Assembly (NCBI GenBank): GCA_034667685.1
Contig: JAXDQU010000054.1
Location: 20,742 to 84,741 of the forward strand
Length of the DNA stretch: 64,000 bases
Direction: 5' to 3'
Source of the DNA: Thermoplasmata archaeon
GTDB taxonomy: Archaea > Thermoplasmatota > SW-10-69-26 > JACQPN01 > JAJPHT01
The notes beneath the pieces are model-generated. The model did not search any database and was not told where the DNA came from. It saw nothing but the letters and a program-made list of their open reading frames with translations. The first letter of the stretch is position 1. Each line of letters begins with the position of its first letter. Positions 1 to 59,562 of the stretch are shown in pieces. Position numbers and translations under genes: made by a program.

Positions 1-3000
1 GGCCGCGCAGGATCGGCATCTGGCTCCACGGACGCGCGTCGCCCGCGGCGCGAAGCGCGGCCTTGGCCGCCAACGTCGCGGCGAGCCAATCCTCCTTGCG
101 CTTCGTGACGGGCAGCGCGGAGAGCGCGGCCTGCTCGTCGGGTGATAGCACGCCCGACCAGAGGCCGGGCCGCTCCAGGAGCGCGCGCGCCGTCTCGACG
201 CCCACGCGCGTGACGTTGGTGCCGCCCACGTGCACGACGTCGTGCAGCCAGGGCGCGATGCCCGGAAGCGCGGCGGGGCCCGTGACGATGAGCGCGACGC
301 CCTGCATCGCGATGGCGACCTCGCCGTCCACGATGCATTGCACGTCGCCCTTGACGCGGTTGTCCTCCAGGCGCGCGTGCGCGACGCGGTACGTGGCGCG
401 GCCCGGCTCGAAGGGGCCGAAGAGGTCGACGCGCCCCACGCGCTCGGGAAGCGCCATGACGCCGCCCACGGCGAGGCCCCAGAGGCCCAGCGCCTGGAAC
501 GCGCCCTCCATGAGCGCGGCCGCGGGCGGGATCCCCTCGGCGGGGGCGCGGCCCGCGCACTCGATGCCATCCGACGCGGCGCGCGTCGGGCGTGATAGCA
601 CCTGGAACGCGGGGCCATGGAAGAACGGCGGGTAGACCCGCTCCGCGCTCCAGGGGTGCCCGGCGGCGCTCCACGGCGCGGGGCGCGGCGCGGCCGTGCC
701 GAGCAGGCGCGCGGTGAAGTGCGTGCGCGGCTGGCGAAGAGGACCCGGAGGGACGGAGGTGACGGAGGCCCTGCCGCCGCTCTCGACGTGCACCGTGATA
801 TCAACGGGCTGGTCGCGCAGCAGCTTCACCGGGTACGCGAAGTGCACGTCCTCCATCGCGGGGACCGGCGTGGGCGACGCGCTCGTCATCGCGCTCATGC
901 CCAGGACACCCGCGAGGTAGGGCACGCCCTCGACGCGGTGGTCGTCGAGCGCCGGGTCGGTGGCGCGCAGGGTCTGCGTCGATCCGGCGGGCTGCCCGAC
1001 GGGCTCCTCGTGCGGCTGCGCCTCGAGCTGGCCGAGGCCCTTCGCGAGCACGACCTCGGGCTCGTCGAGGCGCGCCAGCTCCGAGAGGAACGCGGAGACG
1101 CCCTCCGCCGTGGTGATGGGCTCGACGCCCGCGGCCTTGAGCACGGTGAGCGTGCTCCCCTTCGTCGCCATGCCGACCTCGCCCCACGGGCCCCAGGCGA
1201 ACACGGAGGCGCCGACGCCCTTGGCGCGCAGCGCGCGGGCCAATTTTGATATCGCGTCGTTGGCGGCGGAGTAGTCGGCTTGCGCCGCGTTGCCGTAGCG
1301 CCCCGCGACGCTGCCGAACATGACGAAGAACGCCGGCGGCTCCTTCTCCAGGAGACGCGCGAGGGCGAACGCGGCCTCGGCCTTGGGCTTCCACGCGCGG
1401 TCGAAGGCGCCTTCGTCCTTGTCGGCGAGGCGCTTGCTCTCCTCCAGGCCCGCGGCGTGGATGACGCCGTGGATGCGCCCGAAGCGCGCGCGGACGTCGT
1501 GGACCGCGCGCTCCAGCGCCGCGACGTCGGAGGCGTCGGCCTGCACGTACTCGGCGGTGGCGCCCAGCGCGCGAAGCTCGGCGAGGTTGCGCGCGATCTC
1601 CGCCTTGGCGCGCAGCGGCGCGACGCGCTTCTCGATGGCGACGGGCGTGACGCGCTCGCCGGCGGCCTTGAGGTCGGCCATCGCCTGCTCCTTGGCGCGC
1701 GTCTCGTCGAACGCTTCGCCGGTGGGCGGCGCGGTGCGGCCCAGGAGGACGAGCGTCGGCTTCTGCGGCGCGAGCGCCTTGAGCGCTTCCGCGGTGATGC
1801 CGCGCGCTCCGCCCGTCACGAGCAGCACGGCGCCCGCGGGCAGCTTGGGGTGCTGGCCGTCCGTCGTGCCCGCCTCGATGGTGCGCACGACGACGCGGCC
1901 GCGCGCGGAGCGGCCCACCTCGACCAGCGAGCGCTCGACGCGCAGCTCCGCCTCGACGTGGTGGACGCGGCGCGCGACGTCCTCGGCGGGATCGAGGTCC
2001 AGCGCGCGCACCCACGCCTTGGGGAACTCGGCCGCGAGCGCCTTCGCCATGCCGGTCAGGCCGCCCTGCTCGGGGTGCGCCGCGTGGTCGATGCCGCTGT
2101 GGCCGCCCATCTCGGTGACGACGAGCAGGCCGAGCCTTCCGTTGTCGAGGTCGTTGGCGCGGCTGCGCGCGAAGAGGAACAGCTCGCGCGCGGGGCCGCT
2201 GAAGATCGCGATATCACCTTGGGCGTGCGGCCACTTGTGGCGCAGCGCCTCGGCGAGCGCGCCGTGCCCGGCCACGAAGGCGGATCGCGTGGCGCTCCCC
2301 TCGGCGTGCGCGGGCGAGACGCGCGGCACGCGACGGACGAGCGCGGTGGCCGGCGCGTTCACGCGCGCCGTGTCGAGCGGCGCGGCGCTGGCGGCCGTCT
2401 GCGCGGCGGTGGCGCGGCCCGCGTGCGTGCTGATGAAGCCCGCGACGTGGCTCATCGTCGGGTAGTCCTTGAGGTTGACGCCCTCGATGCGCGGGATGCC
2501 GAACGCCTCGCGCAGCTCGCCGAAGATCTCGGCCTGCTTCACGGTGTCAATGCCCAGGTCCGCTTCCATGTCGAGGTTCGGATCGAGCATCTCCGGCGGG
2601 TAGCCGGTCTTCTGCGCGACGAGCGCCACGACCTTCGATAGCACGTCGTGCGCGGCGCCGGGGCCCTTCTGTGGCGCGGGGGCAGGCTGCGGCGCGGCGG
2701 GGTTGGGCGCGAACTGCGCGGGCGGCGCGGTGAACGGCACGGGCGGCGTGGGCGCCATCGCCTCCGCCACGGTCGGCGTGCCCGACATGCGCGAGACGAG
2801 GTAGTCGGCCACCTTCGCCAGCGTCGGGATGTCCTTGAGCGTCAGCTTGTCGTCGCGCGGCAGCCCGTAGCTCTCGCGCAGGATGCCGAAGATCTCCGCC
2901 TGCTTGACGGTGTCAATGCCCAGGTCCGCCTCCATGTCGAGGTTGGGATCGAGCATCTCGGGCGGATAGCCCGTCTTCTCGGCGACGAGGCCCATGACCT

Positions 3001-6000
3001 TCTGGACGACGGCCTCGCGCGGGACGCCGGCGACCGGGGAGGCCGGCGCGGGCTTCGGCGCCTCGGTCTGGACCGGCACGCTCACGGGCGGCGCGGGCGC
3101 CACGGTCGCGTTGCCGGTGACGCGGAGCACGCGCCCCTGCATCGCCGTCTTGGCGCCGCTGCCGCCGACGCACTGGTCGAGGAACGATTGATAGCGCGTG
3201 GCGTCCGCGACGCGGGCATCGCCCTGCGCCATGCGCTCGAAGAACGCCATCGCGAGCTGCGAGCCGAAGCCCGCGCTGAAGCGCATGGCGAACCGGCGCT
3301 GGTGCGCGCCGCCGCGGCTGAGGTTCAGGTCGGCGAACTCCGGGTCGACGTCGCGCAGGTTGGCGATCGGCGGCACCTTGCCGTATTGCAGCGACTTGAC
3401 CGCGAGGGCGTCCTCGATGCCTGCGCCCATCGGGTGGCCGGTGAAGCCCTTCGTGTTGGTCACGAGGACCTTGGTCGCGCCGCTGCCGAACGCCGCGCGC
3501 ATGGCGGCCGCCTCGGCCGACGCGGAGCCGCCGCGGGCGGGCGTGTACGTCTCGTGCGAGACGAAGATGGTGTCCTGGCCGAGCGCGTCGACGGCGAGGT
3601 TCAGCCGCCTCGCGGCGGCGTCGACCAGCGCCTTGGCCTCCTTGGCGATGTGCTCGACGTGGAGGCGCGAGCCGTGGTACGCGCTGTTCGCGATGCGGGT
3701 CGCGACGAGCCGGGCGACGGGCGTCATGCCGCGCGCCTCCACGTCCTCGCGGCGCTCCAGCACGAGGCCGACGGCGCCCATGCCGATGATCATGCCGTGG
3801 CGGCGGCGGTCGAACGGAAGCGCGCCTTCCTCGACGCTGCCGGCGGTGGTGGCCGCGCCGGAGACGAGGAAGCCGCTGCCGATCCACTCCAGGAGGTTCT
3901 CGGAGGTCACGTCGTCCGCGCCGACCACCACGACGCGTCGCGCTCGGCCGGTGCGCATCCAGTCCTCCGCGATGGCGATGGCCTGCGTGCTGCTGCTGCA
4001 CGCCGCGTTGACCTGCGTGTTGGGCCCGCGCGCGACGATCGTCTCGGCAAGCTCGGCGTGCCCGAGGCTGAGGATGCTGAAGAGGAAGTGGCGGTTGAAC
4101 GCCGCGACACCGTCCTCGTCGCCCGCGAGCTCGTGCAGCTCGTGCGCGTGCTTGGCGTAGAACGCGCTGATGCGGCTCTTCTTCTCGACGGGCACGGCGT
4201 CCAGAAGCTCGTGGTAGAGCGCGTCGAGCTCCGTGAGCGTGGCCTTCGCGTAACGCCTCGCCAGGTGGCGGCTCACTTCCTGCACGAAGTTGTCGTAGCC
4301 GGGGAACGCGCTGGCGAAGATGATGCCGGTGTCGTCCTGCATGTGCGGAGGCAGCACCCAGTCGCCGGGGAGGATCTTCCCGGTGGTCGTGCGCTTCATC
4401 TCCTGCACCATCGGGATGCCCGCGTCCCGCAGCGCCTCGTAGGCCGCCGCGATGGCGAGCTTGCTGGTGATATCAAGCGTCTTGAGGAGCTTGGGATCGA
4501 CGGCGTAGTCGCGCTCCATGTCGAGCCCGCCCTTGCGCCCGGCGAGCTTGAGGACCTCGCTGGCGTCCTTCACGGGCTCCATGCGCGGCTCGCCCTCGCC
4601 CTTCACGAGCCGGACGATCTCCTTGTCGAGGAACTTGCCCGCCCATTGCGTGTCGAGCCGGTCGATGCGGTTCTCGCCGCGGAAGAGCGCCTCGAAGTTG
4701 TCGTCGCCGAAGATGCGCTTCGCGGAGCCGGGCAGCCCCGCGGCCGCGCCGCTGACCACGACGTCGACGGGGAGCAGGCCATAGCGCGAGAAGGCGCCCT
4801 CGGCCTCCTTCAGGCGCGCAAGCTCGCGCTGGAAGCCATCAAAGCTGCTCTTGAGCGCCGCGTCGAGCATGGGCTGGACGCTGGTGCGGAACGCCTCGTA
4901 GCTGCCGTCCGTCGGGCCGACGACCTGCGTCGGGCGCGGCGCCGCGGCCTGCGGCATGGCCTCGGTGGCGTCGCCGCTGGGCAAGGATAGCTCGAACCCG
5001 ACGGCGCCCAGCTTGGCGACCGAGTCCAGGAACGAGGCGAGGTCGCCGCGCTTGGGGTGGTTCGTCGTGACCGCGAGCACGGCCTGGCCCAGGGTGGCCT
5101 CGACGAAGCCCGAGAGCGCGCGCTTCGGGCCGACCTCGACGAAGATCGTCGCGCCCGCGGCCTGCATCGCCTTCAGCTCCGCGATCCACTCGACGGGCGC
5201 GGCGATCTGCTTGGAAAGGATATCACGAATCGCGTCGGGGCTCGCGGGGTAGAGCGTCGCGTCGATGTTCGTGTAGCACGGGATGCGTGGCGCCTGGAAG
5301 CCGAGCCGATCCAGCACGCGGCGCAGCGGCTGCGCGGCGGGCGCCACGATGCTCGTGTGGAACGCGGCGCTCACGTTGAGCTGCATCACGTCGATGCCCA
5401 TGCTTTTGGCGACCTGCATCGCCTTCTGCACGGCCGGCGTCTCGCCCGCGATCACGGTCTGCACGGGACAGTTCTTGTTGGCCGCGACGACGTAGCCGGG
5501 CACCTGGCGGAGCACCTGCTCGACCTGCTCGGGGCCCGCGGAGACGGAGGCCATCAGGCCCTTGTCGGGCACCTGGACGCCGGCCATCTCCTTGCCGCGC
5601 GCCGAGACGGCGAGCAGCGCGTCTTCGAACGATAGCACGCCCGCGGCCACGAGGGCTGCGTACTCGCCCAGCGAGTGGCCGCCTACCATGTCCGGCTTGA
5701 TGCCGTGCTCGGCCAGCAGGCGGAAGATGGCGACGTCGGCCGCGAGCATCGCGGGCTGCGTCACCTCGGTCTGCTTGAGCGACTCCTCGGCGCGCGCCAC
5801 CGCGGCCGCGTCCTTCGGGTCGACCCAGAGCAGCGTGGTGAGCTTGCTTCCGAGCAGCGGCTCCAGCACGCGGTCCGCCTCGTCGAACGTCGCGCGCACC
5901 ACCGGGTAACGCATGGCAAGCTCGCGGCACATGTTGGCGTACTGCGAGCCCTGGCCCGGGAAGAGGAACGCGACCTTGCCCGTGGGACGGCCCTCGGCGA

Positions 6001-8776
6001 ACGCGGCGCCCTTGACCTTGAGCGGGAGCGCCTGGCGTCCCTTCGGGTCGAGGATCAGCGGCGCGGCGGCTTCGAGCGCGGCGGCGAGCCCGGCGCGGTC
6101 CTGCGCGCCCAGCCCCAGGCGCACGCTGCGGGTGTGCGCGCGGGGCGTCCGCACGTGGCGCGCGGCCTGCTCCAGCGTCGCGGCGGCCTTGACCTGTGCG
6201 ACCGCGGCCTTCGCCTCCGCGGCCAGGCCTTCCACGCTGTCGGCCGCGAGCACCACGACCTCGCCCTCGATCTGCGGGGCGAGGGCGGCGGGCGCGCGGG
6301 CCTGCAAGGGCGCGGCCGCGGGCTTCGGCTTCGCCGCGTGGTACTCGGGCAGGAATTCCTCGAGGATGACGTGGAAGTTCGTGCCGCCGAAGCCGAACGC
6401 GGAGACGGCGGCGCGGCGCGGCTCGCCCGTGGGCGTCTTGGGCCACGGCTCGGCGCTCGTCTGCACCTTGAAGGGGACCTTGCTCCAGTCGATGTTCGGG
6501 TTGGGCGTCTGGAAGTTGATCGACGGCGGGAGCGTCTTGTGGTGGAGCGCGAGCGCGGCCTTGAGCATGCCCGCGGCACCCGCGGCGCTCTTGAGGTGGC
6601 CGATCTGCGACTTGACGGAGCCGAGCGCGACGCTCTGGGACGGGAGCGGGCCGAAGACCTCGGCGATGCTCTCGACTTCGACCACGTCGCCGACCTTGGT
6701 GCTCGTGCCGTGCGCCTCGACGAGCTGCACGTGCTTGGGCTGGACCTCGGCGACCTGGAAGGCGCGCTTGACGGCGAGCTTCTGGCCGTCGGGGTTGGGC
6801 GCGGTGATGCCCTTGCCCTTGCCGTCGCTGCTGCTGCCCATCCCGCGGATGACGCAATAGATGCGGTCGCCGTCGCGCACCGCGTGAGATAGCTTTTTCA
6901 GGAGCAGGATCGCGACGCCCTCGCCCATGACGAAGCCGTTGGCGCGCGCGTCGAAGGGGGTGCTGCCGGTGGGCGAAAGCGCGCCGATCTTGCAGAACTT
7001 GACGTAGGTCGCGGGGTCCATGCTGCGGTCCGCGCCGCCGCAGAGCACCATGTCGGCCTCGCCGCCGAGGATCGCCTTGACGGCGGTGTCGAGCGCGGCG
7101 TGGCTGCTGGCGCACGCGGCGTCGGTGGTGAGGTTCTTGCCGGTGAGATTCAGCACGTTGGCGAGCCGGCCGGCGATGACGTTTGATAGCTCGCCGGGCA
7201 TCGAGTCCTCGGTGATGGTGGGCAGCGTCGCCTTGAACTGCGCGAGCGCGCGGTCCACGTCGGCGGCCGGCATCGACTTGCGCAGCGCTGCGGCGAACTC
7301 CGCGGCGTGCATGCGCTTCGAGGTCTCGTCCTTCATCTCGCCGCCCAGCGAGTTGCCCAGGATGACGGCGCAGCGCTGGCGATCGAACGGCTTGCGGTCA
7401 TACCCCGCGTCCGCGAGCGCCTCGGCAGCCGCCGTCAGCGCCATCTGCTGCACGGGGTCGAGCGCCTTCGCCGTGTTGGGCGGGATGCGGAACTTCAGCG
7501 CGTCGAAGCGGAAGCCGGTGATGAAGCCCCCGATCTTCGCGTAGGTCTTGTCCTCCTTCGTCGGGTCCGGGTCGTAGTGCACGCTCGCGTCCCAGCGGTC
7601 GGCCGGGACCTCGACGATGCAGTCCACCTTGTTCAGGACGTTCTGCCAGAACTCGCCCGCGTTGTTCGCGCGCGGCAGCACGGCGCCCACGCCGATGATC
7701 GCCACGGCCTCCTCGTGCGGCACCGTCTCGAAGCGCGGCGCGGTGACGGGCTCCGCGTTCAGCCGGGTGTGCCCGATGGGCGCGGCGGGGGGCTCGGCCA
7801 TCCGAGGATCGGGCATCGCCTCGCGCGGGGGAGGCGAAGGGATGCTGGGGGAGGCGGAGGGAGGTGGGGGGAGGCTGGGGGTGGGCGCCGCGCCCATGCG
7901 CCCCGCGAGATAATCCGCCACTTTCTCGAGCGTCGGGATGTCCTTGAGCGTGAGCTTGTCGTCGCGCGGCAATTGATAGCTTTCGCGCAGGATGCCGAAG
8001 ATCTCCGCCTGCTTCACCGTGTCGATGCCGAGGTCCGCCTCCATGTCGAGGCCGGGGTCGAGCAGGTCCTTCGGGTAGCCGGTCTTCTGCGCCACGAGGT
8101 CGATGACCTTCGCCAGGACCGCAGCCCGCGTAGCGGGCGAGGACCCCGACGAAGCCGCAGCTTCGTTGAGGACTTCCTCGCGCTTCGCTCCGGACGCGGC
8201 GGGCGCGGGCGGAGCGGCGGGCGCAGCAGCGGGCGCCGGGACCGGCGCGGGCGGGGGCGGCGGAGGGAGGCTCGGGGAGGCGGAGGGAGGCGGGGGGAGG
8301 CTGGGCGCGCCGAGGTCGCTGCGCACCTGCGCGATCGCGCCCGCGAGCGAGCCGGCGCGCTTGGCGAGGAACGGCGCGAGCAGCGCGTCGCGGCCCACCT
8401 TCAGGCCGCTGGGCAGCGTGGCGGAGCCGCCCGCGAAGTCGTTCGCGCCGAGCCGCGCCATCGCGGCCTTGTCGTCGGCGGAGAGCGGCGACTCGGGGAG
8501 GAGCCAGAGCTGCGCGTCGAGGATGACGCCCGCGGCGCCGGCCTCCGCGACGGCCTTGAGCGTCGCGCGGTCGAGTCCGCCCTGGGCCAGCGGTTGCTGC
8601 CCCAGGGACACCAGCCGCTTGACCTCGGCGAGCGTCTGCGCGGACGTCTGTCCGCGCGCGACGGGGTGGCCGTCCACGACGGCGTCGTCCGCGAACATGA
8701 GCGGCAGGCCACCGGCGGCTGCCACCTTGACGGCGAAGTCCGGGTTCCCGTTCGGCGTGACGACGTAGAGCTTCAT
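1..8776 (-). CDS. Iterative type I polyketide/fatty-acid synthase (PfaA-like), 3'-partial; domains: degenerate NMO/FabK-like segment, ACP, KS, AT, KS, ACP, ACP, KR, DH, PPTase
   Basis: Manual translation from ATG 8776 (MKLYVVTPNG) stays open to the window edge. KS1: DAACASS (Cys codon 7112-7114), HGTST, GHLKSAAG. AT: FPGQGSQ, GHSLG (Ser 5672-5674), SAAFH. KS2: NAACSSS (Cys 3998-4000), SHETYT, GHPMGAG. Three ACPs with DLGIDTVKQAE. KR: TGGARGIT, YSAAN. DH: DDHRVEGVPYL. Sfp-like LSPDE...DWLAATLAAKAA at the edge. Confidence 0.93.
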   Translation of the reverse strand, partial: MKLYVVTPNGNPDFAVKVAAAGGLPLMFADDAVVDGHPVARGQTSAQTLAEVKRLVSLGQQPLAQGGLDRATLKAVAEAGAAGVILDAQLWLLPESPLSADDKAAMARLGANDFAGGSATLPSGLKVGRDALLAPFLAKRAGSLAGAIAQVRSDLGAPSLPPPPSASPSLPPPPPPAPVPAPAAAPAAPPAPAASGAKREEVLNEAAASSGSSPATRAAVLAKVIDLVAQKTGYPKDLLDPGLDMEADLGIDTVKQAEIFGILRESYQLPRDDKLTLKDIPTLEKVADYLAGRMGAAPTPSLPPPPSASPSIPSPPPREAMPDPRMAEPPAAPIGHTRLNAEPVTAPRFETVPHEEAVAIIGVGAVLPRANNAGEFWQNVLNKVDCIVEVPADRWDASVHYDPDPTKEDKTYAKIGGFITGFRFDALKFRIPPNTAKALDPVQQMALTAAAEALADAGYDRKPFDRQRCAVILGNSLGGEMKDETSKRMHAAEFAAALRKSMPAADVDRALAQFKATLPTITEDSMPGELSNVIAGRLANVLNLTGKNLTTDAACASSHAALDTAVKAILGGEADMVLCGGADRSMDPATYVKFCKIGALSPTGSTPFDARANGFVMGEGVAILLLKKLSHAVRDGDRIYCVIRGMGSSSDGKGKGITAPNPDGQKLAVKRAFQVAEVQPKHVQLVEAHGTSTKVGDVVEVESIAEVFGPLPSQSVALGSVKSQIGHLKSAAGAAGMLKAALALHHKTLPPSINFQTPNPNIDWSKVPFKVQTSAEPWPKTPTGEPRRAAVSAFGFGGTNFHVILEEFLPEYHAAKPKPAAAPLQARAPAALAPQIEGEVVVLAADSVEGLAAEAKAAVAQVKAAATLEQAARHVRTPRAHTRSVRLGLGAQDRAGLAAALEAAAPLILDPKGRQALPLKVKGAAFAEGRPTGKVAFLFPGQGSQYANMCRELAMRYPVVRATFDEADRVLEPLLGSKLTTLLWVDPKDAAAVARAEESLKQTEVTQPAMLAADVAIFRLLAEHGIKPDMVGGHSLGEYAALVAAGVLSFEDALLAVSARGKEMAGVQVPDKGLMASVSAGPEQVEQVLRQVPGYVVAANKNCPVQTVIAGETPAVQKAMQVAKSMGIDVMQLNVSAAFHTSIVAPAAQPLRRVLDRLGFQAPRIPCYTNIDATLYPASPDAIRDILSKQIAAPVEWIAELKAMQAAGATIFVEVGPKRALSGFVEATLGQAVLAVTTNHPKRGDLASFLDSVAKLGAVGFELSLPSGDATEAMPQAAAPRPTQVVGPTDGSYEAFRTSVQPMLDAALKSSFDGFQRELARLKEAEGAFSRYGLLPVDVVVSGAAAGLPGSAKRIFGDDNFEALFRGENRIDRLDTQWAGKFLDKEIVRLVKGEGEPRMEPVKDASEVLKLAGRKGGLDMERDYAVDPKLLKTLDITSKLAIAAAYEALRDAGIPMVQEMKRTTTGKILPGDWVLPPHMQDDTGIIFASAFPGYDNFVQEVSRHLARRYAKATLTELDALYHELLDAVPVEKKSRISAFYAKHAHELHELAGDEDGVAAFNRHFLFSILSLGHAELAETIVARGPNTQVNAACSSSTQAIAIAEDWMRTGRARRVVVVGADDVTSENLLEWIGSGFLVSGAATTAGSVEEGALPFDRRRHGMIIGMGAVGLVLERREDVEARGMTPVARLVATRIANSAYHGSRLHVEHIAKEAKALVDAAARRLNLAVDALGQDTIFVSHETYTPARGGSASAEAAAMRAAFGSGATKVLVTNTKGFTGHPMGAGIEDALAVKSLQYGKVPPIANLRDVDPEFADLNLSRGGAHQRRFAMRFSAGFGSQLAMAFFERMAQGDARVADATRYQSFLDQCVGGSGAKTAMQGRVLRVTGNATVAPAPPVSVPVQTEAPKPAPASPVAGVPREAVVQKVMGLVAEKTGYPPEMLDPNLDMEADLGIDTVKQAEIFGILRESYGLPRDDKLTLKDIPTLAKVADYLVSRMSGTPTVAEAMAPTPPVPFTAPPAQFAPNPAAPQPAPAPQKGPGAAHDVLSKVVALVAQKTGYPPEMLDPNLDMEADLGIDTVKQAEIFGELREAFGIPRIEGVNLKDYPTMSHVAGFISTHAGRATAAQTAASAAPLDTARVNAPATALVRRVPRVSPAHAEGSATRSAFVAGHGALAEALRHKWPHAQGDIAIFSGPARELFLFARSRANDLDNGRLGLLVVTEMGGHSGIDHAAHPEQGGLTGMAKALAAEFPKAWVRALDLDPAEDVARRVHHVEAELRVERSLVEVGRSARGRVVVRTIEAGTTDGQHPKLPAGAVLLVTGGARGITAEALKALAPQKPTLVLLGRTAPPTGEAFDETRAKEQAMADLKAAGERVTPVAIEKRVAPLRAKAEIARNLAELRALGATAEYVQADASDVAALERAVHDVRARFGRIHGVIHAAGLEESKRLADKDEGAFDRAWKPKAEAAFALARLLEKEPPAFFVMFGSVAGRYGNAAQADYSAANDAISKLARALRAKGVGASVFAWGPWGEVGMATKGSTLTVLKAAGVEPITTAEGVSAFLSELARLDEPEVVLAKGLGQLEAQPHEEPVGQPAGSTQTLRATDPALDDHRVEGVPYLAGVLGMSAMTSASPTPVPAMEDVHFAYPVKLLRDQPVDITVHVESGGRASVTSVPPGPLRQPRTHFTARLLGTAAPRPAPWSAAGHPWSAERVYPPFFHGPAFQVLSRPTRAASDGIECAGRAPAEGIPPAAALMEGAFQALGLWGLAVGGVMALPERVGRVDLFGPFEPGRATYRVAHARLEDNRVKGDVQCIVDGEVAIAMQGVALIVTGPAALPGIAPWLHDVVHVGGTNVTRVGVETARALLERPGLWSGVLSPDEQAALSALPVTKRKEDWLAATLAAKAALRAAGDARPWSQMPILRG

Positions 8777-8780
8777 GATA

Positions 8781-9602
8781 TCACTGGGGCCCTTCGTAGG
8801 GGTTGAGACGAGGCTCGATGAGCAGGCGGTCCATCTCGGGCGGCGCGCCGACGCTGACGTAGCCCGCGTCGACGTAGATCGTCTGTCCCGTGATGCCGCC
8901 GCTGTCGGGCGTGAGGAGGAACCGCGCGGCCTTCGCGACGTCGACCTGCGTGACGTTGCGGCGCAGCGGCGTGTTGTTCGCCATCCAGTCGAGGATCTGG
9001 TCGAAGCCGGGCACGCCGGAGGCGGCGAGCGTCTTGATCGGGCCCGCGCTGATGGCGTTGACGCGGATGCCGTAGCCGGGGCCGACGCTCGCGGCCAGCT
9101 CGCGCACGAGCGACTCGATGGCAGCCTTCGCGGTGCCCTGCACGCGGTAGCCCGGGACGACGCGCTGGCCGCCCAGGTACGTGAGGGCGACGATGCCCGC
9201 GTCGCGGTTGAGCAGCGGCAGGCCGTTGCGCACGACGCGGACGAGGCTGTACGCGCTGATGGTGAGCGTGGTGTTGAAGTCGGCCTCGGTGGTCTCCGTG
9301 ATCGGCTTCATGAGCGCCTCGGCGGGCGTGAAGGCGATGGCGTGGACGAGGCCGTCGTACTTGCCGTGGAGCTTGGCGTGGAACGCCTTGACCGAGTCCT
9401 CGGAGGAGACGTCGCACTCCTCCATCTGGTCGATCCACTTCTGGTCCTTCGCAAGCTGGAGGACGCGGCTCATGAACCGCTTCTGGTAGGCGAGCGTGAC
9501 GGTCGCGCCGCGGCCCGCAAGCTCCTGTGCGATGGCCCAGGCGATGCTGGTGTCGCTGGCGACGCCGTACACGAGGAAACGCTTGCCTTGGAGGTCGTTC
9601 AT
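8781..9602 (-). CDS. fabI: Enoyl-ACP reductase (FabI-type SDR)
   Basis: GVASDTSIAWAIA N-terminus, HAIAF, catalytic YxxxxxxK (YRVQGTAK), IRVNAISAGPIKTLAA, ITGQTIYVDAG. Confidence 0.9.
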   Translation of the reverse strand: MNDLQGKRFLVYGVASDTSIAWAIAQELAGRGATVTLAYQKRFMSRVLQLAKDQKWIDQMEECDVSSEDSVKAFHAKLHGKYDGLVHAIAFTPAEALMKPITETTEADFNTTLTISAYSLVRVVRNGLPLLNRDAGIVALTYLGGQRVVPGYRVQGTAKAAIESLVRELAASVGPGYGIRVNAISAGPIKTLAASGVPGFDQILDWMANNTPLRRNVTQVDVAKAARFLLTPDSGGITGQTIYVDAGYVSVGAPPEMDRLLIEPRLNPYEGPQ

Positions 9603-40022: not shown

Positions 40023-40151
40023 GATATCCAAACCTTCGCGGCGCCGCACGCGATGGCCCCTGATAGCAGACGCGGGCGGGCAGCCGGGCAGCGGCGGACG
40101 CGATGGACGTGGAAAGAAAGACGCGGAGCGGGGAAGTCCCGCACTCCGCCT

Positions 40152-43118: not shown

Positions 43119-44252
43119 ATGCGCGTCCTCGTCCCCGTCCTCCTCGCGCTGGCGACGCTCGCCGGCTGCCTCGAGACCCCCGCGCCGCCCGCGGACAACG
43201 CCACGGCCCCCGGCACGGGGCTCGGCGACCTCGCGCGCCACCCGGACCTTCCGGTGGGCGTGCTCTACCAGGACTCGTTCGGCTTCGGGCCGGGCGAGGG
43301 GGACCGGCGCGACACGTTCGTCGTGCCGCCCGCGACGGACGCGCTCGCCTTCGAGGCCAACCTCAGCGCCACGACCGACGGGGCCGACGCCAGCGCGGTC
43401 GCGCTCTTCGCGCCCAACGGAACGGGCATGGCGAAGTGCTACGAGAGCCCGTGCCTCCAGCGCGTCGAGTCGCCGACCCCCGGCGCGTGGCAGGTCTCCT
43501 TCTCCGGCATGGCCGGCCGCAACGGCACCGTGACCGTGCGCGTCGCCGCCTCGTCGCCCGCTCCCTCGACGCCCGCGACGCCGCCGACGGTGACGCCGAG
43601 CCCCACGCCGCCGACCCCCGCATCCACGACGTACACGTACGCGCGGACCATCACCTTCAACGCGCGGACCAACCAGACGGATTTCCTGGTCGTGCTCCCG
43701 GGCGCCACGCGCCTGCGCGGCGCGGTCGTCTTCGAGAACGTGAGCAGCGAGTCGAACTACCCGCCCGCCGTCTCGGTCTACCGGCGCGACGGCGGCGTCT
43801 ACACGCCGCCCTGCCAAGCCTCGTGCGAGATCGACCTCGAAGCGAAGCCGGGCCTCTACCTCGTCAGCTATCAGGGCAACGGCACCGGATCGGCCTACGT
43901 GAAGATCGACGTCGAGGGCGCCCCCGACGCCACGGGCTCCGTGGACGTCTACATGAGCGGCCACGACTACGCCTCCGGCCAGCTCCGCGGTCCGTTCGAC
44001 GAGGGGTTCCTCGTGCCGCCCGGATTCTCGCGCCTGGAGTTCGACGTGCAGTGGGGCCAGGCCCACGATCCCGCGTCCAACGCGACCATCGTGCTCCGCG
44101 ACCCCGCCGGCGCCGAGATCGCGCGGTGCGCGCGGCTGGATCAGGACGTCTGCACGATCGACCGCGAGGGCGCGGCGCCCGGCCTCTGGAAGGTGGAGTA
44201 CCTCGGCCGGGACAGCCTCGCTGGGCCGCGCACCCACGCCAAGGCCGGCTGA
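43119..44252 (+). CDS. Lipoprotein with three repeated beta-sandwich (PPC-like) domains
   Basis: LAGC; repeated F.VP(P)G, Cys pairs and PG.W.V.(Y/F).G motifs. Confidence 0.7.
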   Translation: MRVLVPVLLALATLAGCLETPAPPADNATAPGTGLGDLARHPDLPVGVLYQDSFGFGPGEGDRRDTFVVPPATDALAFEANLSATTDGADASAVALFAPNGTGMAKCYESPCLQRVESPTPGAWQVSFSGMAGRNGTVTVRVAASSPAPSTPATPPTVTPSPTPPTPASTTYTYARTITFNARTNQTDFLVVLPGATRLRGAVVFENVSSESNYPPAVSVYRRDGGVYTPPCQASCEIDLEAKPGLYLVSYQGNGTGSAYVKIDVEGAPDATGSVDVYMSGHDYASGQLRGPFDEGFLVPPGFSRLEFDVQWGQAHDPASNATIVLRDPAGAEIARCARLDQDVCTIDREGAAPGLWKVEYLGRDSLAGPRTHAKAG

Positions 44253-46343: not shown

Positions 46344-46724
46344 ATGCCCTCCCATTCCGATCTCAAGACGCGCCTCACGCCGCTCCAATACAAGGTGACG
46401 CAGGAGGCCGGCACGGAGCGGCCCTTCACGGGCGAATACTGGAACCACCACGCGGAGGGCGAGTACCGGTGCGTGGTGTGCGACGCGCCGCTTTTTGATA
46501 GCAGGGCGAAGTTCGACTCCGGCACCGGCTGGCCGAGCTTCTGGCAGCCGGCCGAGGGGGCGCGCGTCGCCGAGCACGTCGACCGCTCGCTCTTCATGAA
46601 GCGCGTCGAGGTGCGCTGCGAAGCGTGCGACGCGCACCTGGGCCACGTCTTCCCCGACGGGCCGCCGCCCACGGGACAGCGGTTCTGCATCAACAGCGCG
46701 TCGTTGGCGTTCAAGCCGCGTTAG
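46344..46724 (+). CDS. msrB: Peptide methionine (R)-sulfoxide reductase
   Basis: [42 protein letters not shown]. Confidence 0.95.
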
Positions 46725-48572: not shown

Positions 48573-50213
48573 TCAGGAATACTTGTACGGAGCCGCGGCC
48601 GGCGCGGGGTTCGTCGCGTCGAACTTCACGATGTAGAGGCCGGTCGTGTCCTCGTTGAGCACGAGCGTGCCGTCGGGGAAGGCGTCGACCTGCTCGTCGA
48701 AGGGCAGCGTGTCGTTCTTCTTGGGCATGACCTGCGGCGGGATCGCCGGGAGGAACACGCCGATCGAGGGCGGCGCCTTGAGCGAGGTCGCGTTGCTGAC
48801 GTCCGCGGCCCAGATGCCCGCGTGGTAGTCGCTGATGAAGAGCGTGCGGTTGACGAGCGCGAGGTAGTGCGGGCTCGCCTGGTACTCCGTCGTCCACACG
48901 CCGGTGTCCTCGGGGAGGTGCCACTCGCCGACCATCTTGGGCGTGGAGGGGTCCGTGTTGTCGATGACGAAGACCTGGCCGCCGGGCGTCTTGGTGTCGG
49001 TCTTCATCGGGCACTCCTGGCCCGCGAAGATGTAGTGCTTGCCGTCCCACGCGGTCTCCGCCGCGAGCACCTCGTGCACCGCGTTGTGATAGCACGGGCC
49101 GGAGTCGGGCAGGCCGCCGCTGGCCTGGAGGTCGGCGGTCGGGCCGGCCGCGGGCGGGAGCCACATGCCCGTGAGCACCGGCGCCTGGGGCACGGTCATG
49201 TCCAGCGTGATGACGCCGCCCTCCCACGCCGCGAGGTAGGCGTAGGTCTTGTGATCGAGCGGGTGCTTCGAGATCGAGACGTCGGTGTGGCCGTTGACGA
49301 GCGGCGCCGCGACGTTGCCGTCCTTCGTGACGGTGGCGGGCGGCATCGTGAACGTCGACATGCGGACGAGCTTCGCGCCCAGGGGCGTCTCCATGACCTG
49401 GTCGAAGATCCAGTACGACGCCTGGTGGCAGAGGCAGAGCTCGCTGCCGGTGACCCACGTCACGTTGTCGACGCTGGCCGTGCTGACGCTGTGCAGGTTG
49501 ACGCCGGGGCTCGGGTCCCAGTCGGCGTAGACGGGCTTCGTGGGGTCGCTGATGTCGATGAGCACGATGCCGTTGGTGAAGGCGAGGTCGGGCAGCGCGA
49601 AGCGCATGTCGCCGCACGCGCTGCGGAAGCCGAGGCCGGGCGCGTCGCCGATGATGCCCGCGCTGGCCGGACTGCGGTCCGGTCGCGCCGCATCGTCGCG
49701 GACGATGCCGGCCCCGCCGGGCTGGCGCAGGATGCCGTCGAAGGCGAGCACGACGTACTTGCCATCGGGCGTGATGTCGGCGTCGTAGCTGCCCATGCCC
49801 TTGGCGTAGAACTCGCCGACCTTCTTGGGCTCCGTCGCGCTGGTCACGTCCACGAGCACGAACGTGAGATCGTTCTGGAAGCCGTTGACGACGACGAAGC
49901 GCTTCCCGTCCGCGCGCGTCGCGGTGCCGCCGCAGCCGTAGCCGAACGCGGGCTGGCCCTTGAGCGCGTCCGTGACCAGGAAGTCGTGGCCCAGGAGCTG
50001 GAAGTTGGACGTGGACGCGTTCATGTGCTGAAGGACGTCCTTGTGGTCGTGCTCCTTGTCGTGCGCGAGCGCCTTCTCGTACCACGTCGCGTTCATCACG
50101 GGCGTGGGCGCGTTGGCCTGCGTGACGGAGGACGCGGGCGCGTTGAGGCAGCCCGAGAGGACGGGGGCGGCGACGAGGGCCGCCAGGAGCGCGACGGGAA
50201 GGAGCCTGGGCAT
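48573..50213 (-). CDS. LVIVD-repeat beta-propeller lipoprotein, paralog A
   Basis: LSGC lipobox; HDHKD..QH..STSNF; repeated LVD(V/I)(S/T)DP..P; NGHTD; SPHY. Confidence 0.75.
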   Translation of the reverse strand: MPRLLPVALLAALVAAPVLSGCLNAPASSVTQANAPTPVMNATWYEKALAHDKEHDHKDVLQHMNASTSNFQLLGHDFLVTDALKGQPAFGYGCGGTATRADGKRFVVVNGFQNDLTFVLVDVTSATEPKKVGEFYAKGMGSYDADITPDGKYVVLAFDGILRQPGGAGIVRDDAARPDRSPASAGIIGDAPGLGFRSACGDMRFALPDLAFTNGIVLIDISDPTKPVYADWDPSPGVNLHSVSTASVDNVTWVTGSELCLCHQASYWIFDQVMETPLGAKLVRMSTFTMPPATVTKDGNVAAPLVNGHTDVSISKHPLDHKTYAYLAAWEGGVITLDMTVPQAPVLTGMWLPPAAGPTADLQASGGLPDSGPCYHNAVHEVLAAETAWDGKHYIFAGQECPMKTDTKTPGGQVFVIDNTDPSTPKMVGEWHLPEDTGVWTTEYQASPHYLALVNRTLFISDYHAGIWAADVSNATSLKAPPSIGVFLPAIPPQVMPKKNDTLPFDEQVDAFPDGTLVLNEDTTGLYIVKFDATNPAPAAAPYKYS

Positions 50214-53221: not shown

Positions 53222-54786
53222 GCGAACGGCGCCGCTTCCGGCATCGGGTTGCTCGCGTCGAACTTCAGCGTGTAGAGCCCCGAGAGGTCGTCGTTGAGGA
53301 CGATGGTCCCGTCGGCGAACGCATCGACCTGCTCGTCGAAGGGCGCGGGCGTGCCGCGGCCGGCGTGCGGCGCGACGGGCGGCGCCTCGTCGGGCAGGAA
53401 CACGCCGATGGAGGGCGGGCTCGCGAGCTTGCTGGGGCCGACGTCCACGGCCCACAGCCCCGCGTGGTAGTCCGACACGAGCAGCGTGCGGTTGACGAGC
53501 GCGACGTAGTGCGGGCTCGCCTGGTACTCCGTCGTCCAGACGCCGGTGTCCTCGGGAAGGTGCCACTCGCCGATCTCGGAGAGGAGCGCCGGGTTCGTGA
53601 TATCAAGCACGAAGACGCTGCCGCCGGGCGCGTGCGTGCTCGTCTTCATGGGGCATTCCTGGCCCGCGAAGAGGACGTGCCGCCCCTCCCAGAGGCCGGG
53701 CGCGGGGAGGACAGTGTGGATCGCGCCGGGATAGCAATCGCCGTTGAGCAGGTCGATCAGCTCGCCGCCTGCGTTGGCCGCGGGCGGGATCCACTGCGCG
53801 ACCATCACGGGCGCGACAGGCACGGTCATGTCGAGGATGACGACGCCGCCGTCCCAGTCCGCGAGGTAGGCGTACTCCATGCCGTCCGCCGGGTTCCTCT
53901 CCAGCGTCGCGTCCACGTGGCCGTTGGTGAGCGGCGCCACGAGCGGCCGCGCGCCGGTGAGGCTCGTCGAGGTGGCGAGGGGCGGCGAGTCGAACGTGGA
54001 GAGACGCACGAGCTTGCCGCCCAGGGGCGTCTCCAGCACCGTGTCGAAGACGAAGTAGGACGCGGGGTGCGCGAGGCTGACCATCGAGCCGATGACGACC
54101 TGCAGGCCGTCCATCTCCGCGGTGCTGACGCTGTGCGTGTTGTAGCCGGGCATCGGGTCGTAGTCCGCGTAGACGGGGCTCGTCGGGTCGCGCACGTCGA
54201 TCATCATGATGCCCGTCGTGACCGCGGCGTCGGGCAGCGCGAGGCGCATGGTCGCGCCGTCGCAGGCGCGCTGGAAGGCGATGCCGGGCGCGGAGGGCAC
54301 GCGGGCGAGCGAGTCGAGCGCGAGGACGACGAAGTGGCCGTCGCGCGTGATCGCGGCGTCCCACGAGCCGATGCCCTGGCTGTAGAACTCGCCCACGCGC
54401 TGCGGGCGCGCGGCGTCGGTGACGTCGACGAGCTCGAAGGCCATGTCGTCGAGGAACGACGCGACGACGGTGAGCCGGCGGCCGTCCGCGCGCGTCGCGC
54501 TGTCGCCGCACCCGTAGGCGCCGCTGGGCTGGCCGCCGTAGTGCGGCGAGAGCAGCGGGTCGTGGCCGAGCTTCACGAAGTTGGGCGTGGAGGCGTTGCG
54601 GTGCTGCGAGAGGTCCTGGTGGTCGTGCCCGGCGCCGTGCGCGAGCGCGGCCTCGTACCAGGGACCCGCGGGCGGGAGCGCGGCGGCGGGCGTGGCGCGG
54701 GCCGAGAAGGCGCCCTCCAGGCATCCCGCGACCGCGGGGACGAGCGCGCAGAGGGCGACGACGAGCAGCGTGCGGAGGCGGGCCAC
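53212..54786 (-). CDS. LVIVD-repeat lipoprotein, paralog B
   Basis: VAGC lipobox; HDHQDLSQH.NASTPNF; GEWHLPEDTGVWTTEYQASPHY identical to paralog A. Confidence 0.75.
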   Translation of the reverse strand: MARLRTLLVVALCALVPAVAGCLEGAFSARATPAAALPPAGPWYEAALAHGAGHDHQDLSQHRNASTPNFVKLGHDPLLSPHYGGQPSGAYGCGDSATRADGRRLTVVASFLDDMAFELVDVTDAARPQRVGEFYSQGIGSWDAAITRDGHFVVLALDSLARVPSAPGIAFQRACDGATMRLALPDAAVTTGIMMIDVRDPTSPVYADYDPMPGYNTHSVSTAEMDGLQVVIGSMVSLAHPASYFVFDTVLETPLGGKLVRLSTFDSPPLATSTSLTGARPLVAPLTNGHVDATLERNPADGMEYAYLADWDGGVVILDMTVPVAPVMVAQWIPPAANAGGELIDLLNGDCYPGAIHTVLPAPGLWEGRHVLFAGQECPMKTSTHAPGGSVFVLDITNPALLSEIGEWHLPEDTGVWTTEYQASPHYVALVNRTLLVSDYHAGLWAVDVGPSKLASPPSIGVFLPDEAPPVAPHAGRGTPAPFDEQVDAFADGTIVLNDDLSGLYTLKFDASNPMPEAAPFAYS

Positions 54787-55243: not shown

Positions 55244-56751
55244 CTACGGCTTGTGCGTCAGGGTCCACGCCGGCAGGGCCGGCACGCCGGACGTCTCCGG
55301 GTGGAAGCGCAGCACGTAGGCGCCGCTGTAGGCGTCGAACGTGACGAGCGTGCCGTCGGGCTGCGGCAGCACGTCCTCGACGTCGGGCGTGCCGGTCTGG
55401 TCCTTCGCCGGGGGCGGGTCGGGCGGCGCGCGGTCCGGGATGAAGACGCCCAGCGTGGGCGGGTTGGCGATCTGCTCGGGCGTGCTCAGGTTGACGGCCC
55501 AGAGCCCCGCGTGATAGCTCGACACGAAGAGCGTGCGGTCGACCATCCCGACGTAGTGGAGCGAGAAGGCGAGATAGCCCTGCCACTCGCGCTCGACGGG
55601 GATCGTCCAGCGCCCCGCGACCTTGAGGTTCGCCGGGTCGGTGTCGTCGAGGATGTAGACCCAGCCGCTCGGGCGGTCCGCGGGCTTGTCGGTCAGCTCC
55701 TGCCCGGCGAGGACGTAGTGCCTGCCCTCCCACGTGCCGTTGATGGGCCACACGTCGTGGATCGAGCCGTCCGCCGGGATGTAGACGGTCGGGTCCTTCA
55801 TCTCGCTGAAGCTGCTGACGTAGAGCGGCACGCGGATGTTGCTCACGTCCACGACGATCATGCCGGCGTTCCAGTCGGCGAGGTACGCGAGCGTCTGGTG
55901 CGTGAGCGGGTGCTTCGCGATCGTGCCGTCCATGTGGCCGTTCAGGATCGCGGGCGTCTGGCCCGGCACGGGCGGCGCCTGGTAGACGCTCTGGAGGTCG
56001 AGCTTGTCGCCCTCCACCGTGAAGAACTCGTAGAAGCTGGCCTGGTGCTCGATCTGGAGCGCGCTGACGATGGCGTAGGTCACGCCGTCGACCTGGCTGG
56101 TGGCCACGCTCTGCGGGCCCACGGCGCCCGAGAAGAATCCGTCCACGATCTTCGGGTGCGTGGGGTCGGCGACGTTGATCAGCACGACGCCGGGCAGCAC
56201 GGAGAGCAGGCCGTTCGGATCGGTGGGGACGTGGGCGCCGGTGCACGCGTCGCGGAAGTAGGGCTGCTGGAGCGCGCCGGTGATCTGGCCCTGCCGGACG
56301 TTGTTCTGCGCGAGCAGGACGTGCGCGCCGTCGGGCGTCATCGCGACGTCGTAGGCGTGCCCCTCGGGCATCACGAACTCGCCAACCTTCTGCGGGTGAG
56401 CGGGGTCCGTGATATCAACCAGGACGAACATCACGTCGGTGGTGAACGAGTTGACGACCGCGAGGTGGCGGCCGCTGGACGTCACGCTGGTCTCGCCGCA
56501 GGCCCAGCCGCCGGCCGACTTGTTCTCCATCGCCGCGGTGGGGAGCGGGCTCCAGCCCACGACCTCGAAGTTGGGCGTGGAGAGCCCCCTGTGCTGCGCG
56601 GGGTCGTGGTGGTCGTGGCCGCTGCCGGTGGGCAGGGCGCGCACGGCCCAATCGACGTCCGCGACCGACGCGGAGGAGACGACCTGCTGTGGAGCCGTGC
56701 CGAGGCATCCCGCGGCGAGGACGAGCAGCGCGCGGCCGCGACCCAGCGCAT
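55244..56751 (-). pseudogene. LVIVD-repeat lipoprotein, paralog C, with a +2 frameshift in the signal peptide
   Basis: GGTGA RBS and ATG 56751 (MRWVAAA) are out of frame with LLVLAAGCLG... by an extra CG in a GCGCGC run near 56728-56733; the body of the gene is intact. Confidence 0.7.
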
Positions 56752-56760
56752 GATATCACC

Positions 56761-58536: not shown

Positions 58537-59562
58537 GTGCCCACGAAGGCCACGCAGGACCCCAGCCTCCGCCCGAGCCTCAGCCCCAGCCCGGCGAACG
58601 CGTCGCGCGACCTGCTGCGCATGGCGGACTTCGGCGCGGACCTGGAGGACGTGATCGACGCCGCGCGCGCCATCAAGCGTCTCAACAAGGGCGGCCACCC
58701 CACGCCCTACCTCGCCGCGAAGAGCGCCGTGCTCATCTTCGAGAAGGCCAGCACGCGCACCCGCGTCAGCTTCGAGGTCGGCCTCGCCAAGCTCGGCATG
58801 ACCAGCACGTTCCTCAGCACGCGCGACATCCAGATGGGACGCGGCGAGTCGATCGAGGACACCGCGCTCGTCCTCTCGCGCTACGCCGACGTGCTGGTCT
58901 ACCGCGCGTTCCGCAACGAGGACGTGAAGGCGCTCGCGCAGCACGCCACGAGCCCCGTCGTCAACGCGCTCGACGACCTGGAGCACCCCTGCCAGGTCGC
59001 GGCGGACCTCATGACCATCGCCGAGAAGAAGGGCGCCCTCGCGGGCCTGCGCTTCCTCTACGTGGGCGACGGCAACAACATGTGCCACTCGTACCTCATC
59101 GGCATGGCGATGGCGGGCATGCACGTCACCGTCGCGACGCCCGCGGCCTACGCACCCGACTCCGCCGTGGTCAAGGAGGCCGAGGCGATCGCCCACGCCA
59201 TGGGCGGGAGCGTCACGCTCCTCCACCCCGATGATATCACGCCGCTCTTCGACGGGCAGGACGTCGTCGCCACGGACACGTGGATCAGCATGGGCGACGA
59301 GGACGAGAAGGAGCAGCGCGTGAAGGACTTCGCGGGCTACACCGTCACGTCGGCCCACATGGCGCGCACGAACGAGGGCGTCTTCCTCCACTGCCTCCCA
59401 GCCTACTACGGCTACGAGGTCGAGAAGGACGTCGCCCACGGCCCGCAGAGCGCCGTCTTCGACGAGGCCGAGAACCGCCTCTGGGCCCAGATGGCGATCC
59501 TGGTCTGGCTGCTCGCGCCGTGGCGCATCCCGCAGCTGGCGGCGCAGGGCCGGGAACACTGA
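58537..59562 (+). CDS. argF: Ornithine carbamoyltransferase
   Basis: FEKASTRT, HPCQ, GDGNN, DTWISMG, HCLP, EAENR; start uncertain. Confidence 0.93.
   Translation: MPTKATQDPSLRPSLSPSPANASRDLLRMADFGADLEDVIDAARAIKRLNKGGHPTPYLAAKSAVLIFEKASTRTRVSFEVGLAKLGMTSTFLSTRDIQMGRGESIEDTALVLSRYADVLVYRAFRNEDVKALAQHATSPVVNALDDLEHPCQVAADLMTIAEKKGALAGLRFLYVGDGNNMCHSYLIGMAMAGMHVTVATPAAYAPDSAVVKEAEAIAHAMGGSVTLLHPDDITPLFDGQDVVATDTWISMGDEDEKEQRVKDFAGYTVTSAHMARTNEGVFLHCLPAYYGYEVEKDVAHGPQSAVFDEAENRLWAQMAILVWLLAPWRIPQLAAQGREH

Follow-up and report, generated by a model that had tools for sequence, protein, structure and literature searches.

The closest known phenomenon to the sequence word described here is the highly iterated palindrome HIP1 (GCGATCGC) of cyanobacteria, together with the alternate highly iterated palindromes of the same group (Elhai, 2015, PMC4390886; Rodriguez-Cruz et al., 2026, PMC13756078). 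Two routes are discussed for HIP1, namely a biased mismatch repair linked to methylation (Elhai, 2015, PMC4390886) and the preferential uptake or integration of word-bearing DNA, the latter with reference to transformation experiments (PMC13756078), and the second paper presents the origin and role of highly iterated palindromes as open since 1993. In the present analysis, a stretch of 64,000 nucleotides from an archaeon of the Thermoplasmata (hereafter the window; contig C54:20742-84741 of genome G000, which comprises 3,481,428 bases in 124 contigs, with a guanine-plus-cytosine (GC) content of 71.1% and a completeness of 99%) was followed up for an AT-rich octamer, TGATAKCA, which occurs as the palindrome TGATATCA and as the asymmetric form TGATAGCA (K = G; TGCTATCA on the opposite strand). 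The results showed that a word-specific, strand-symmetric and directional force acts on this word at the DNA level, that it arose in one genus and that it is still active.

Like HIP1, the archaeal word has eight letters, of which the inner six are strict and the end letters more tolerant, and is in huge excess over composition; it lies within genes in preferred frames, spreads by substitution and not by insertion, and varies among lineages. It differs from HIP1 in being AT-rich within a genome of 71% GC, in having one degenerate position (K) and being half non-palindromic, and in being confined to one genus, clearly young and randomly spaced, with no cognate methyltransferase identified. At about one copy per 5 kb, it is also sparser than HIP1.

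The DNA uptake sequences (DUS) of Neisseriaceae and the uptake signal sequences (USS) of Pasteurellaceae are lineage dialects that show drive in native DNA, are scarce in foreign islands and carry some protein cost. The archaeal word is likewise short, a genus-level dialect, scarce in foreign DNA and placed in coding frames, whereas G000 is without detected ComEC and without terminator-type inverted pairs, and the word is not enriched outside genes; we know of no sequence-specific DNA uptake in archaea. Very-short-patch repair by Dcm/Vsr in Escherichia coli acts on CCWGG and CTAG and turns near-cognates into cognates. The near-cognate TGCTACCA of the archaeal word is depleted, as it would be by a site-specific repair bias of this kind; however, no Vsr homologue was found, the bias concerns four or more positions and includes transversions, and the excess is 30- to 65-fold as compared to less than 2-fold. 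Chi, the octamer of RecBCD/AddAB crossover hotspots, resembles the word in being over-represented, at about one copy per 5 kb, with a possible role as a mark of self DNA, but Chi is asymmetric and co-oriented with replication, while the archaeal word is palindromic or nearly so and enriched in both orientations. Neither this word nor any iterated palindrome of an archaeon was found described in a literature search that did not cover most subscription journals; papers retrieved on highly iterated palindromes and archaea dealt with cyanobacteria or general topics, occurrences of TGATATCA were, among the matches listed, primers, CRE variants and similar, and no paper on GATATC methylation in Thermoplasmata was found.

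Enrichment of the word and its reading on double-stranded DNA

In the window, TGATATCA occurs at 8 sites against a mean of 0.07 in 100 dinucleotide shuffles, none of which reached 8, and the broader consensus WGATAKCW, under which the first-pass annotation of the window had described the word, occurs at 25 distinct sites over both strands (33 rows of the search, the 8 palindromes being counted on each strand), with a mean of 1.55 and a maximum of 6 in dinucleotide shuffles. Over the whole genome, G000 holds 378 TGATATCA, 329 TGATAGCA/TGCTATCA, 130 TGATAGCT/AGCTATCA and 32 AGATAGCT/AGCTATCT sites, which gives 707 sites of TGATAKCA, about 1 per 5 kb, with the non-palindromic K = G form making up approximately half of them. 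Among the 3028 octamers that contain six A/T letters, the palindrome is by far the commonest (162 sites for the next word unrelated to it; median 3). Because the word is AT-rich in a genome of 71% GC, it has next to no background and each copy carries information.

For comparison with codon usage, genes were called as open reading frames with a GC content at third codon positions (GC3) of at least 0.85 and with GC3 > GC1 > GC2 (2464 calls, 72% of the genome), and synonymous codons were shuffled within each gene (30 shuffles). Coding DNA contained 262 TGATATCA against 4.5 after shuffling (standard deviation 2.0, maximum 8); on the coding strand, TGCTATCA was found 187 times against 6.4 and TGATAGCA 61 times against 0.7, and AGCTATCA numbered 93 against 8.3. 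When all coding octamers were ranked against this null, TGATATCA was the most over-represented (z-score 129) and the K = G forms came next. A dicodon (first-order codon) chain, which itself holds part of the signal, predicted 9.4 copies of xxT-GAT-ATC-Axx and 2.6 of xxT-GAT-AGC-Axx, where 249 and 58 were observed. A maximal-order Markov null (672 vs 756 for TGATATCA) was discarded as useless, since the excess already sits in the sub-words. The enrichment therefore outlasts the codon- and dicodon-preserving shuffles (262 vs 4.5; 249 vs 9.4) that the first-pass annotation had set as the test able to overturn its claim, the palindrome heads the genome-wide k-mer comparison that it had proposed, and its central inference of a genome-wide DNA-level signal of the HIP1 kind, due neither to composition nor to codon usage, is upheld. 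Among tetramers, CTAG stood at 0.22 of its Markov expectation and AATT, ATAT and TTAA at 2.4- to 3.2-fold; the ATAT excess is inflated by the word itself.

The word is used in three frames, xxT-GAT-ATC-A, xTG-CTA-TCA and AGC/TGC-TAT-CA, and the encoded peptides (D-I, L-S, S/C-Y-Q/H and D-S) are unrelated. Because both orientations of the asymmetric form and all three frames are enriched, the word is read on double-stranded DNA, and not as codons or peptides. An effect of translation or of codon pairs, or an artefact of composition or assembly, could appeal to the favoured frame that each form of the word has, and to a true codon-pair effect that does exist in this genome (GAA-TTG). The contrast word GAATTG is in excess on the coding strand only (185 vs 25.9, 7-fold; CAATTC 41 vs 46.1), which suggests an effect on codon pairs or at the mRNA level, separate from that of the main word. 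For the main word such an explanation is scarcely credible, as two orientations and three frames are enriched, the excess survives both codon nulls, a sister genus at the same GC content shows no excess, and the sites are identical in contigs of another sample. GAATTG joins two rare codons, GAA (Glu) and TTG (Leu), for example near 75773 of contig C8 of G000, and at times overlaps the main word as GAATTGCTATC. A hidden-stop or Shine-Dalgarno-like explanation was also rejected, TGA-keeping variants (TGATATCG) being only 3-fold enriched.

Analysis of the letters upstream of a TATCA anchor revealed T in 63% (C 19, A 9, G 9), then G in 95%, then A in 56% or C in 41%; positions outside the 8 bp did not depart from the shuffled profile, and the letter 3' of the word showed no preference genome-wide. 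Among the twelve one-letter variants, only TGCTATCA, an A/C exchange at one inner position, was strongly enriched (33-fold), the rest reaching 0- to 7-fold; changes in the first or last letter (positions 1/8) were the most tolerated (2- to 7-fold) and other inner changes gave 0- to 3-fold. The double variant TGCTAGCA was not enriched (1 vs 0.5), and TGCTACCA was reduced to 3 copies vs 23.7. The strict core is GMTATC, strengthened by the letter before it, in the order T > A > C > G, and by an A as the last letter. The earlier consensus WGATAKCW needs refining to this strict core (GMTATC = GATAKC) with graded ends, and its AGATAGCT and TGATAGCT classes are members of a weaker kind (AGCTATCA 11-fold vs TGATATCA 65-fold). 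A symmetric degenerate site GMTAKC was considered and rejected, GCTAGC (79 sites) and TGCTAGCA being without enrichment.

Where synonymous choice allows the word, it is taken up to a large extent. The share of TAT among tyrosine codons was 97% (28/29) in TGC-TAY-CA, 93% in xGA-TAY-CA, 87% in AGC-TAY-CA, 76% in CGC-TAY-CA and 46% in GGC-TAY-CA, as compared to 3-19% after other dinucleotides (3-9% except TG, 27 cases) and 0-10% when the next codon starts with a letter other than C. In the same way, TGATATCA stands at 249 of 482 X-D-I-(A..) places, CTA-TCA at 155 of 590 xTG-L-S places, and the word at 76 of 108 S-Y-(CAx) and 28 of 30 C-Y-(CAx) places. The word occupies 52-97% of the places open to it by synonymous change, and among the codons of G000, 47% of CTA and 33% of TAT lie within its core.

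Phylogenetic range and gain of sites

The small- and large-subunit rRNA genes of G000 match archaeal Rfam models. All five searched species of its genus (G000-G004) carry the word, with 116-707 sites, and the counts by genome were as follows.

G000: TGATATCA 378; TGATAGCA on both strands 329
G001: TGATATCA 111; TGATAGCA on both strands 72
G002: TGATATCA 141; TGATAGCA on both strands 229
G003: TGATATCA 210; TGATAGCA on both strands 151
G004: TGATATCA 53; TGATAGCA on both strands 63
G005-G008, four sister genera of the same family: TGATATCA 2-5; TGATAGCA 5 in G007
G009-G020, twelve genomes of other families of the same order or class: TGATATCA 0-9

In the sample of G007 (1.18 Mb at 70.5% GC), 6 TGATAKCA sites were found. 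As a separate observation, three genomes from other classes of the phylum (G030, G032 and G037) contained 163-215 TGATATCA vs 5-17 copies of a reversed control word, and may be either ordinary or independent cases.

The word arose within one archaeal genus. It is young, because sister genera of equal GC content are without it and the species differ 6-fold in copies, and its origin is datable, the word being present in all five congeners and missing from four sister genera.

The gain of sites was followed in the closest species, G003, of which 792 kb were sampled and 470 kb aligned to G000 at 79% identity. Of 109 aligned G000 sites, 21 were the word in G003 as well, 6 were one letter off, 72 were two to seven letters off and 10 fell in gaps; in the opposite direction, 21 of 47 G003 sites were also the word in G000, while any octamer is identical in 28%. 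A total of 99 of the 109 sites aligned gap-free, with flanks at background divergence, and the word spreads by point substitution, without indels. Divergence between the two species was 0.36 in the word, 0.44 at non-shared sites and 0.19-0.21 in the 30-nt flanks, and within the word it was 0.58-0.67 at positions 1, 4, 5 and 8 and 0.24-0.28 at positions 2, 3, 6 and 7. Non-shared G000 sites were on average 3.4 letters from the G003 state, as compared to 2.1 for differing control octamers.

Orthologous places in G007 were taken from the top tblastn hit at an identity of 50% or more, and none of the 70 carried the word. The G007 states were C or G at position 1 in 38 of 42 cases and at position 4 in 38 of 42, with A 19, G 19 and C 4 at position 5 and A 19, G 14 and C 9 at position 8. 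At the 10 sites that have an orthologue in each of G003 and G007, polarisation of the 20 positions that differ between G000 and G003 placed 14 changes on the G000 side and 1 on the G003 side, with 5 ambiguous.

These states also bear on context-dependent mutation without any reader, for instance a process in which methylated CpG is deaminated and CGACGTCG-like words become TGATATCA. The G003 state at G000-only palindromes is mostly S-G-A-Y-G-T-C-G, that is, Asp-Val-(Gxx), and C>T or G>A changes at the CpG of such SGAYGTCG-like words would yield the word. Nevertheless, 34 of the 122 changes inferred from the G007 state at positions 1, 4, 5 and 8 of palindromic sites are transversions (G>T 21, C>A 13), a C>A change at Leu codons is required for the TGCTATCA form, CpG shows no depletion (CGCG 1.04, ACGT 1.14, TCGA 1.11), and the context dependence reaches across letters as far as 7 bp from one another. 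A mutational signature without a reader is thus largely refuted and has very little probability left, and the pure methylation or deamination signature named among the options of the first-pass annotation finds no support.

Replacements such as Val to Ile are implied by half of the states that G007 shows at positions 5 and 8, so that a change of amino acid was necessary for approximately half of the sites. Amino-acid identity in the word codons was 0.53 vs 0.64 in the aligned stretch for G007 (n = 70) and 0.74 vs 0.78 for G003 (n = 77). The gains override a preference of approximately 92-97% for C/G-ending codons and cause conservative amino-acid replacements; the word-writing force is able to change protein sequences.

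A proposed fixation bias, its rivals and the search for a reader

The gaps between the 707 TGATAKCA sites are exponential (coefficient of variation 1.0, 595 gaps), and no pair of words lies less than 50 bp apart, against 7.2 expected. The word is scarce in low-GC (foreign) DNA and present in native DNA: the 28 two-kb windows below 63% GC (56 kb) contain 1 site, density is 0.21-0.22 per kb where the GC content is 69-74% and reaches 0.44 per kb from 78% GC upward, and it is lowest on contigs C42 and C118, of 66-67% GC (0.086 per kb on C118). A density that rises with GC is the opposite of a composition effect, and is what would be expected if only long-resident DNA had accumulated the word, which is usable as a marker separating native from foreign DNA in these uncultured archaea.

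With moderate confidence, we regard TGATAKCA as a genus-specific highly iterated word, a watermark like HIP1 or the uptake sequences that was built by fixation bias. Recognition of the word by a putative factor would be similar to that by a symmetric dimer, with one half-site having to be perfect and the other tolerating a single defined change, and through this factor substitutions that improve the match would be fixed more often than those that worsen it, which would amount to molecular drive. The factor may act by the correction of mismatches or heteroduplexes, biased to the strand with the (possibly modified) word, or by the preferential acceptance of word-bearing DNA in genetic exchange; both routes fit the data, which do not tell them apart, and one of the two would most likely be at work. 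The graded profile with its need for one perfect half-site suggests a dimeric reader with a binding threshold, and not a monomeric methyltransferase acting on a degenerate palindrome. The option of a HIP1-like or uptake-like signal in the first-pass annotation is accordingly the one preferred here, with no reader protein found for it.

Drive is favoured over site-by-site selection because the costless places are nearly all filled, the spacing is random and copy number varies 6-fold. Under site-by-site selection, an abundant chromosomal protein specific to the genus would bind the word, and each copy would be kept for its use in nucleoid organisation, segregation or repair entry or as a self/non-self mark. 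Such selection would suit a profile graded like a binding-energy matrix, in which a perfect half-site is needed and the double variant is not tolerated, as well as the retention in G000 of 45% of the G003 sites (21/47) vs 28% for any octamer and the lack of the word in foreign low-GC DNA. It is nonetheless unlikely in our view: a need for a given density predicts neither the filling of 87-97% of the one-step synonymous places nor the exponential spacing, counts differ 6-fold among congeners, most G000 sites are recent, and no candidate protein was found. A chromatin or condensin loading site at a set density, another option of the first-pass annotation, is a poor fit with the near-saturated places and Poisson spacing.

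A further alternative is a ratchet of the type proposed by Elhai, in which a GMTATC methyltransferase would mark the new strand when an error creates the word, and mismatch repair would then fix the error. It would account for the strict inner hexamer with the end letters most tolerant, a trait shared with HIP1 (Elhai, 2015, PMC4390886), and for the highest saturation being at one-step places. Its enzymatic means could be present, as G000 has the NucS mismatch nuclease and at least five DNA methyltransferase genes or fragments, listed below.

Contig C106: beta-class N4/N6 methyltransferase
Contig C63: C5 methyltransferase adjoining a primase-like gene
Contig C97, 3088-4443 (L033): type II N4/N6 methyltransferase
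Contig C118, 34272-37541 (L001): HmaB-like DUF1156 adenine methylase (PADLOC, 335 bits)
End of contig C103 and start of contig C51 (L035, L036): C5 methylase gene, split

None of the four that were compared with relatives (C106, C63, C97 and C118) has a genus-only distribution, as the ratchet would require. In addition, a monomeric GMTAKC enzyme should drive GCTAGC too, which is not enriched (79 sites), though CTAG itself is avoided (0.22), and many G000-only sites lie 3-5 positions from the G003 state, beyond the reach of a last-step ratchet alone. No methyl-directed repair is known to us in archaea, which also counts against the ratchet, and we hold it to be quite improbable. The C97, C118 and C103/C51 methyltransferases are of the defence or mobile type, and the PF02384 profile gave weak matches only.

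Several observations weigh against a watermark built by fixation bias. The sample of polarised sites is a small one, and the gene calls, GC3-based open reading frames over 72-76% of the genome, are crude. The spacing of the word is not quasi-periodic, unlike that of HIP1 as described in PMC13756078. DNA without coding periodicity (approximately 360 kb, 66% GC) contains 0.053 sites per kb vs 0.203 overall, a 4-fold lower density that a context-blind drive would not predict, although the foreign islands of low GC content are part of this class of DNA and near-cognate words are fewer in it. As for the reader, the C106 and C63 enzymes occur also in the sister genera (59-68% identity) and across the order or class, while the C97 enzyme and the HmaB-like enzyme of C118 are in G000 alone and in none of 12 relatives, and these candidates were rejected. 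The PF02086 profile for methyltransferases of the EcoRV type (D12) gave nothing beyond a borderline match inside HmaB, and neither Vsr (PF03852) nor ComEC (PF03772) was found in the 99%-complete G000. A MutS_V-like gene is present in 9 of 9 family genomes and NucS in 7 of 9, the two without it being 72% and 86% complete; neither gene sets the genus apart from its sisters. No reader protein was found, and no correlate in gene content among methyltransferase, Vsr, ComEC, MutS and NucS.

A change of specificity in a conserved gene is possible. A synteny screen for G000 insertions relative to G007 was uninformative (404 reciprocal best hits and 57 candidates, 38% of G007); four of its candidates that are also in the G003 sample resemble ArgB, ArgJ, an SRPBCC-type protein and a small unknown protein, as judged by reading their sequences, with no search made.

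The word constitutes an independent case of a highly iterated word in another domain of life. We suggest tentatively that a recently arisen sequence-reading system may be rewriting the chromosome toward its own word, and this might then be the first archaeal counterpart of HIP1 and the uptake sequences. If true, a young archaeal word may be the most tractable case for finding watermark-writing machinery by comparative genomics, and the contrast between the genus and its sisters turns what writes the word into a concrete question for comparative genomics and methylome analysis.

Sites in the window

The WGATAKCW sites of the window, and the stretch that lacks them, are given below with the strand of the asymmetric forms.

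143..150, + strand: TGATAGCA; coding (-) strand GTG CTA TCA (V-L-S), in the giant gene ending at 8776
593..600, + strand: TGATAGCA; coding strand GTG CTA TCA; common to G003
796..803, palindrome: TGATATCA; GTT GAT ATC ACG (V-D-I-T); TGATGTCG in G003 and TGATATCG in G002
4468..4475, palindrome: TGATATCA; CTT GAT ATC ACC; common to G002 and G003, one letter off in G001 and two in G004
6887..6894, + strand: AGATAGCT, weak variant; coding strand AAG CTA TCT
7184..7191, + strand: TGATAGCT; coding strand GAG CTA TCA; common to G003
7974..7981, + strand: TGATAGCT; coding strand AGC TAT CAA; common to G003
8776..8783, palindrome: TGATATCA at a gene boundary; - strand TGATATC-ATG, abutting the start codon
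14761..14768, + strand: AGATAGCT, weak variant; outside gene calls
15962..15969, + strand: TGATAGCA; outside gene calls
24300..24307, - strand: AGATAGCT; + strand gene, AGC TAT CTC
25898..25905, - strand: TGATAGCA; outside gene calls
27135..27142, + strand: TGATAGCT; coding strand AGC TAT CAG
28098..28105, palindrome: TGATATCA; CGT GAT ATC ACG
28106..34179, no strand: site-free stretch around the island of 55-63% GC, with bare GCTATC cores only, at 28689, 31301 and 31354
34180..34187, + strand: TGATAGCT; coding strand AGC TAT CAC
38106..38113, + strand: TGATAGCT; coding strand AGC TAT CAG
40061..40068, + strand: TGATAGCA; immediately outside a called gene end
43866..43873, - strand: TGATAGCT; + strand gene, AGC TAT CAG
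46496..46503, + strand: TGATAGCA; coding strand TTT GAT AGC AGG (F-D-S-R)
49087..49094, + strand: TGATAGCA; coding strand TGC TAT CAC
53598..53605, palindrome: TGATATCA; CTT GAT ATC ACG
55512..55519, + strand: TGATAGCT; coding strand AGC TAT CAC
56410..56417, palindrome: TGATATCA; GTT GAT ATC ACG
56751..56758, palindrome: TGATATCA at a gene boundary; - strand GAGGTGATATC-ATG, abutting the start codon
59232..59239, palindrome: TGATATCA; CGT GAT ATC ATC

The eight palindrome coordinates listed in the first-pass annotation (796, 4468, 8776, 28098, 53598, 56410, 56751 and 59232) are all exact, and its three lists of variants (7, 7 and 3 sites) match the pattern search exactly, which makes its list complete for WGATAKCW. 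Its description of the copies as embedded in coding sequence holds for 19 of the 25 sites under the crude gene calls, and its remark that the low-GC island is free of full copies agrees with the lack of any between 28105 and 34180. The GC content of the window is 69-76% except in this island of 55-63% at 28-32 kb. The strand and spacing analysis that it had called for showed that the strand excess tracks gene orientation, with no polarity of the word, and that the spacing is random: 14 of the 17 asymmetric copies are on the + strand because the genes of the window are mostly on the - strand (34.8 vs 16.1 kb).

Sites 593, 4468, 7184 and 7974 are common to G003, and 4468 to G002 also, and others occur in G000 only. 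Contigs from another soil sample (run X2) showed 0 differences from the window over sites 143, 593, 796, 4468, 8776 and 14761, and these sites are therefore no artefact of one assembly; the contigs of runs X3, X4 and X7 are a mixture of relatives, too noisy for a polymorphism test.

The giant gene at 2-8776 on the - strand runs past the window start, exceeds 2925 codons and contains seven copies of the word. The palindromes at 8776-8786 and 56751-56761, both read on the - strand, adjoin start codons (TGATATC-ATG), and at 56751 the copy is preceded by GAGG, so that the word overlaps a Shine-Dalgarno-like GAGGTGAT. Elsewhere in the window, the depth of metagenome contigs over 10006-11339 and 16676-17342 was 5- to 40-fold above that of neighbouring bins in all four runs, and the segment 9756-11210 had several matches in each relative genome; the high-depth segments are probably members of widespread paralogous families.

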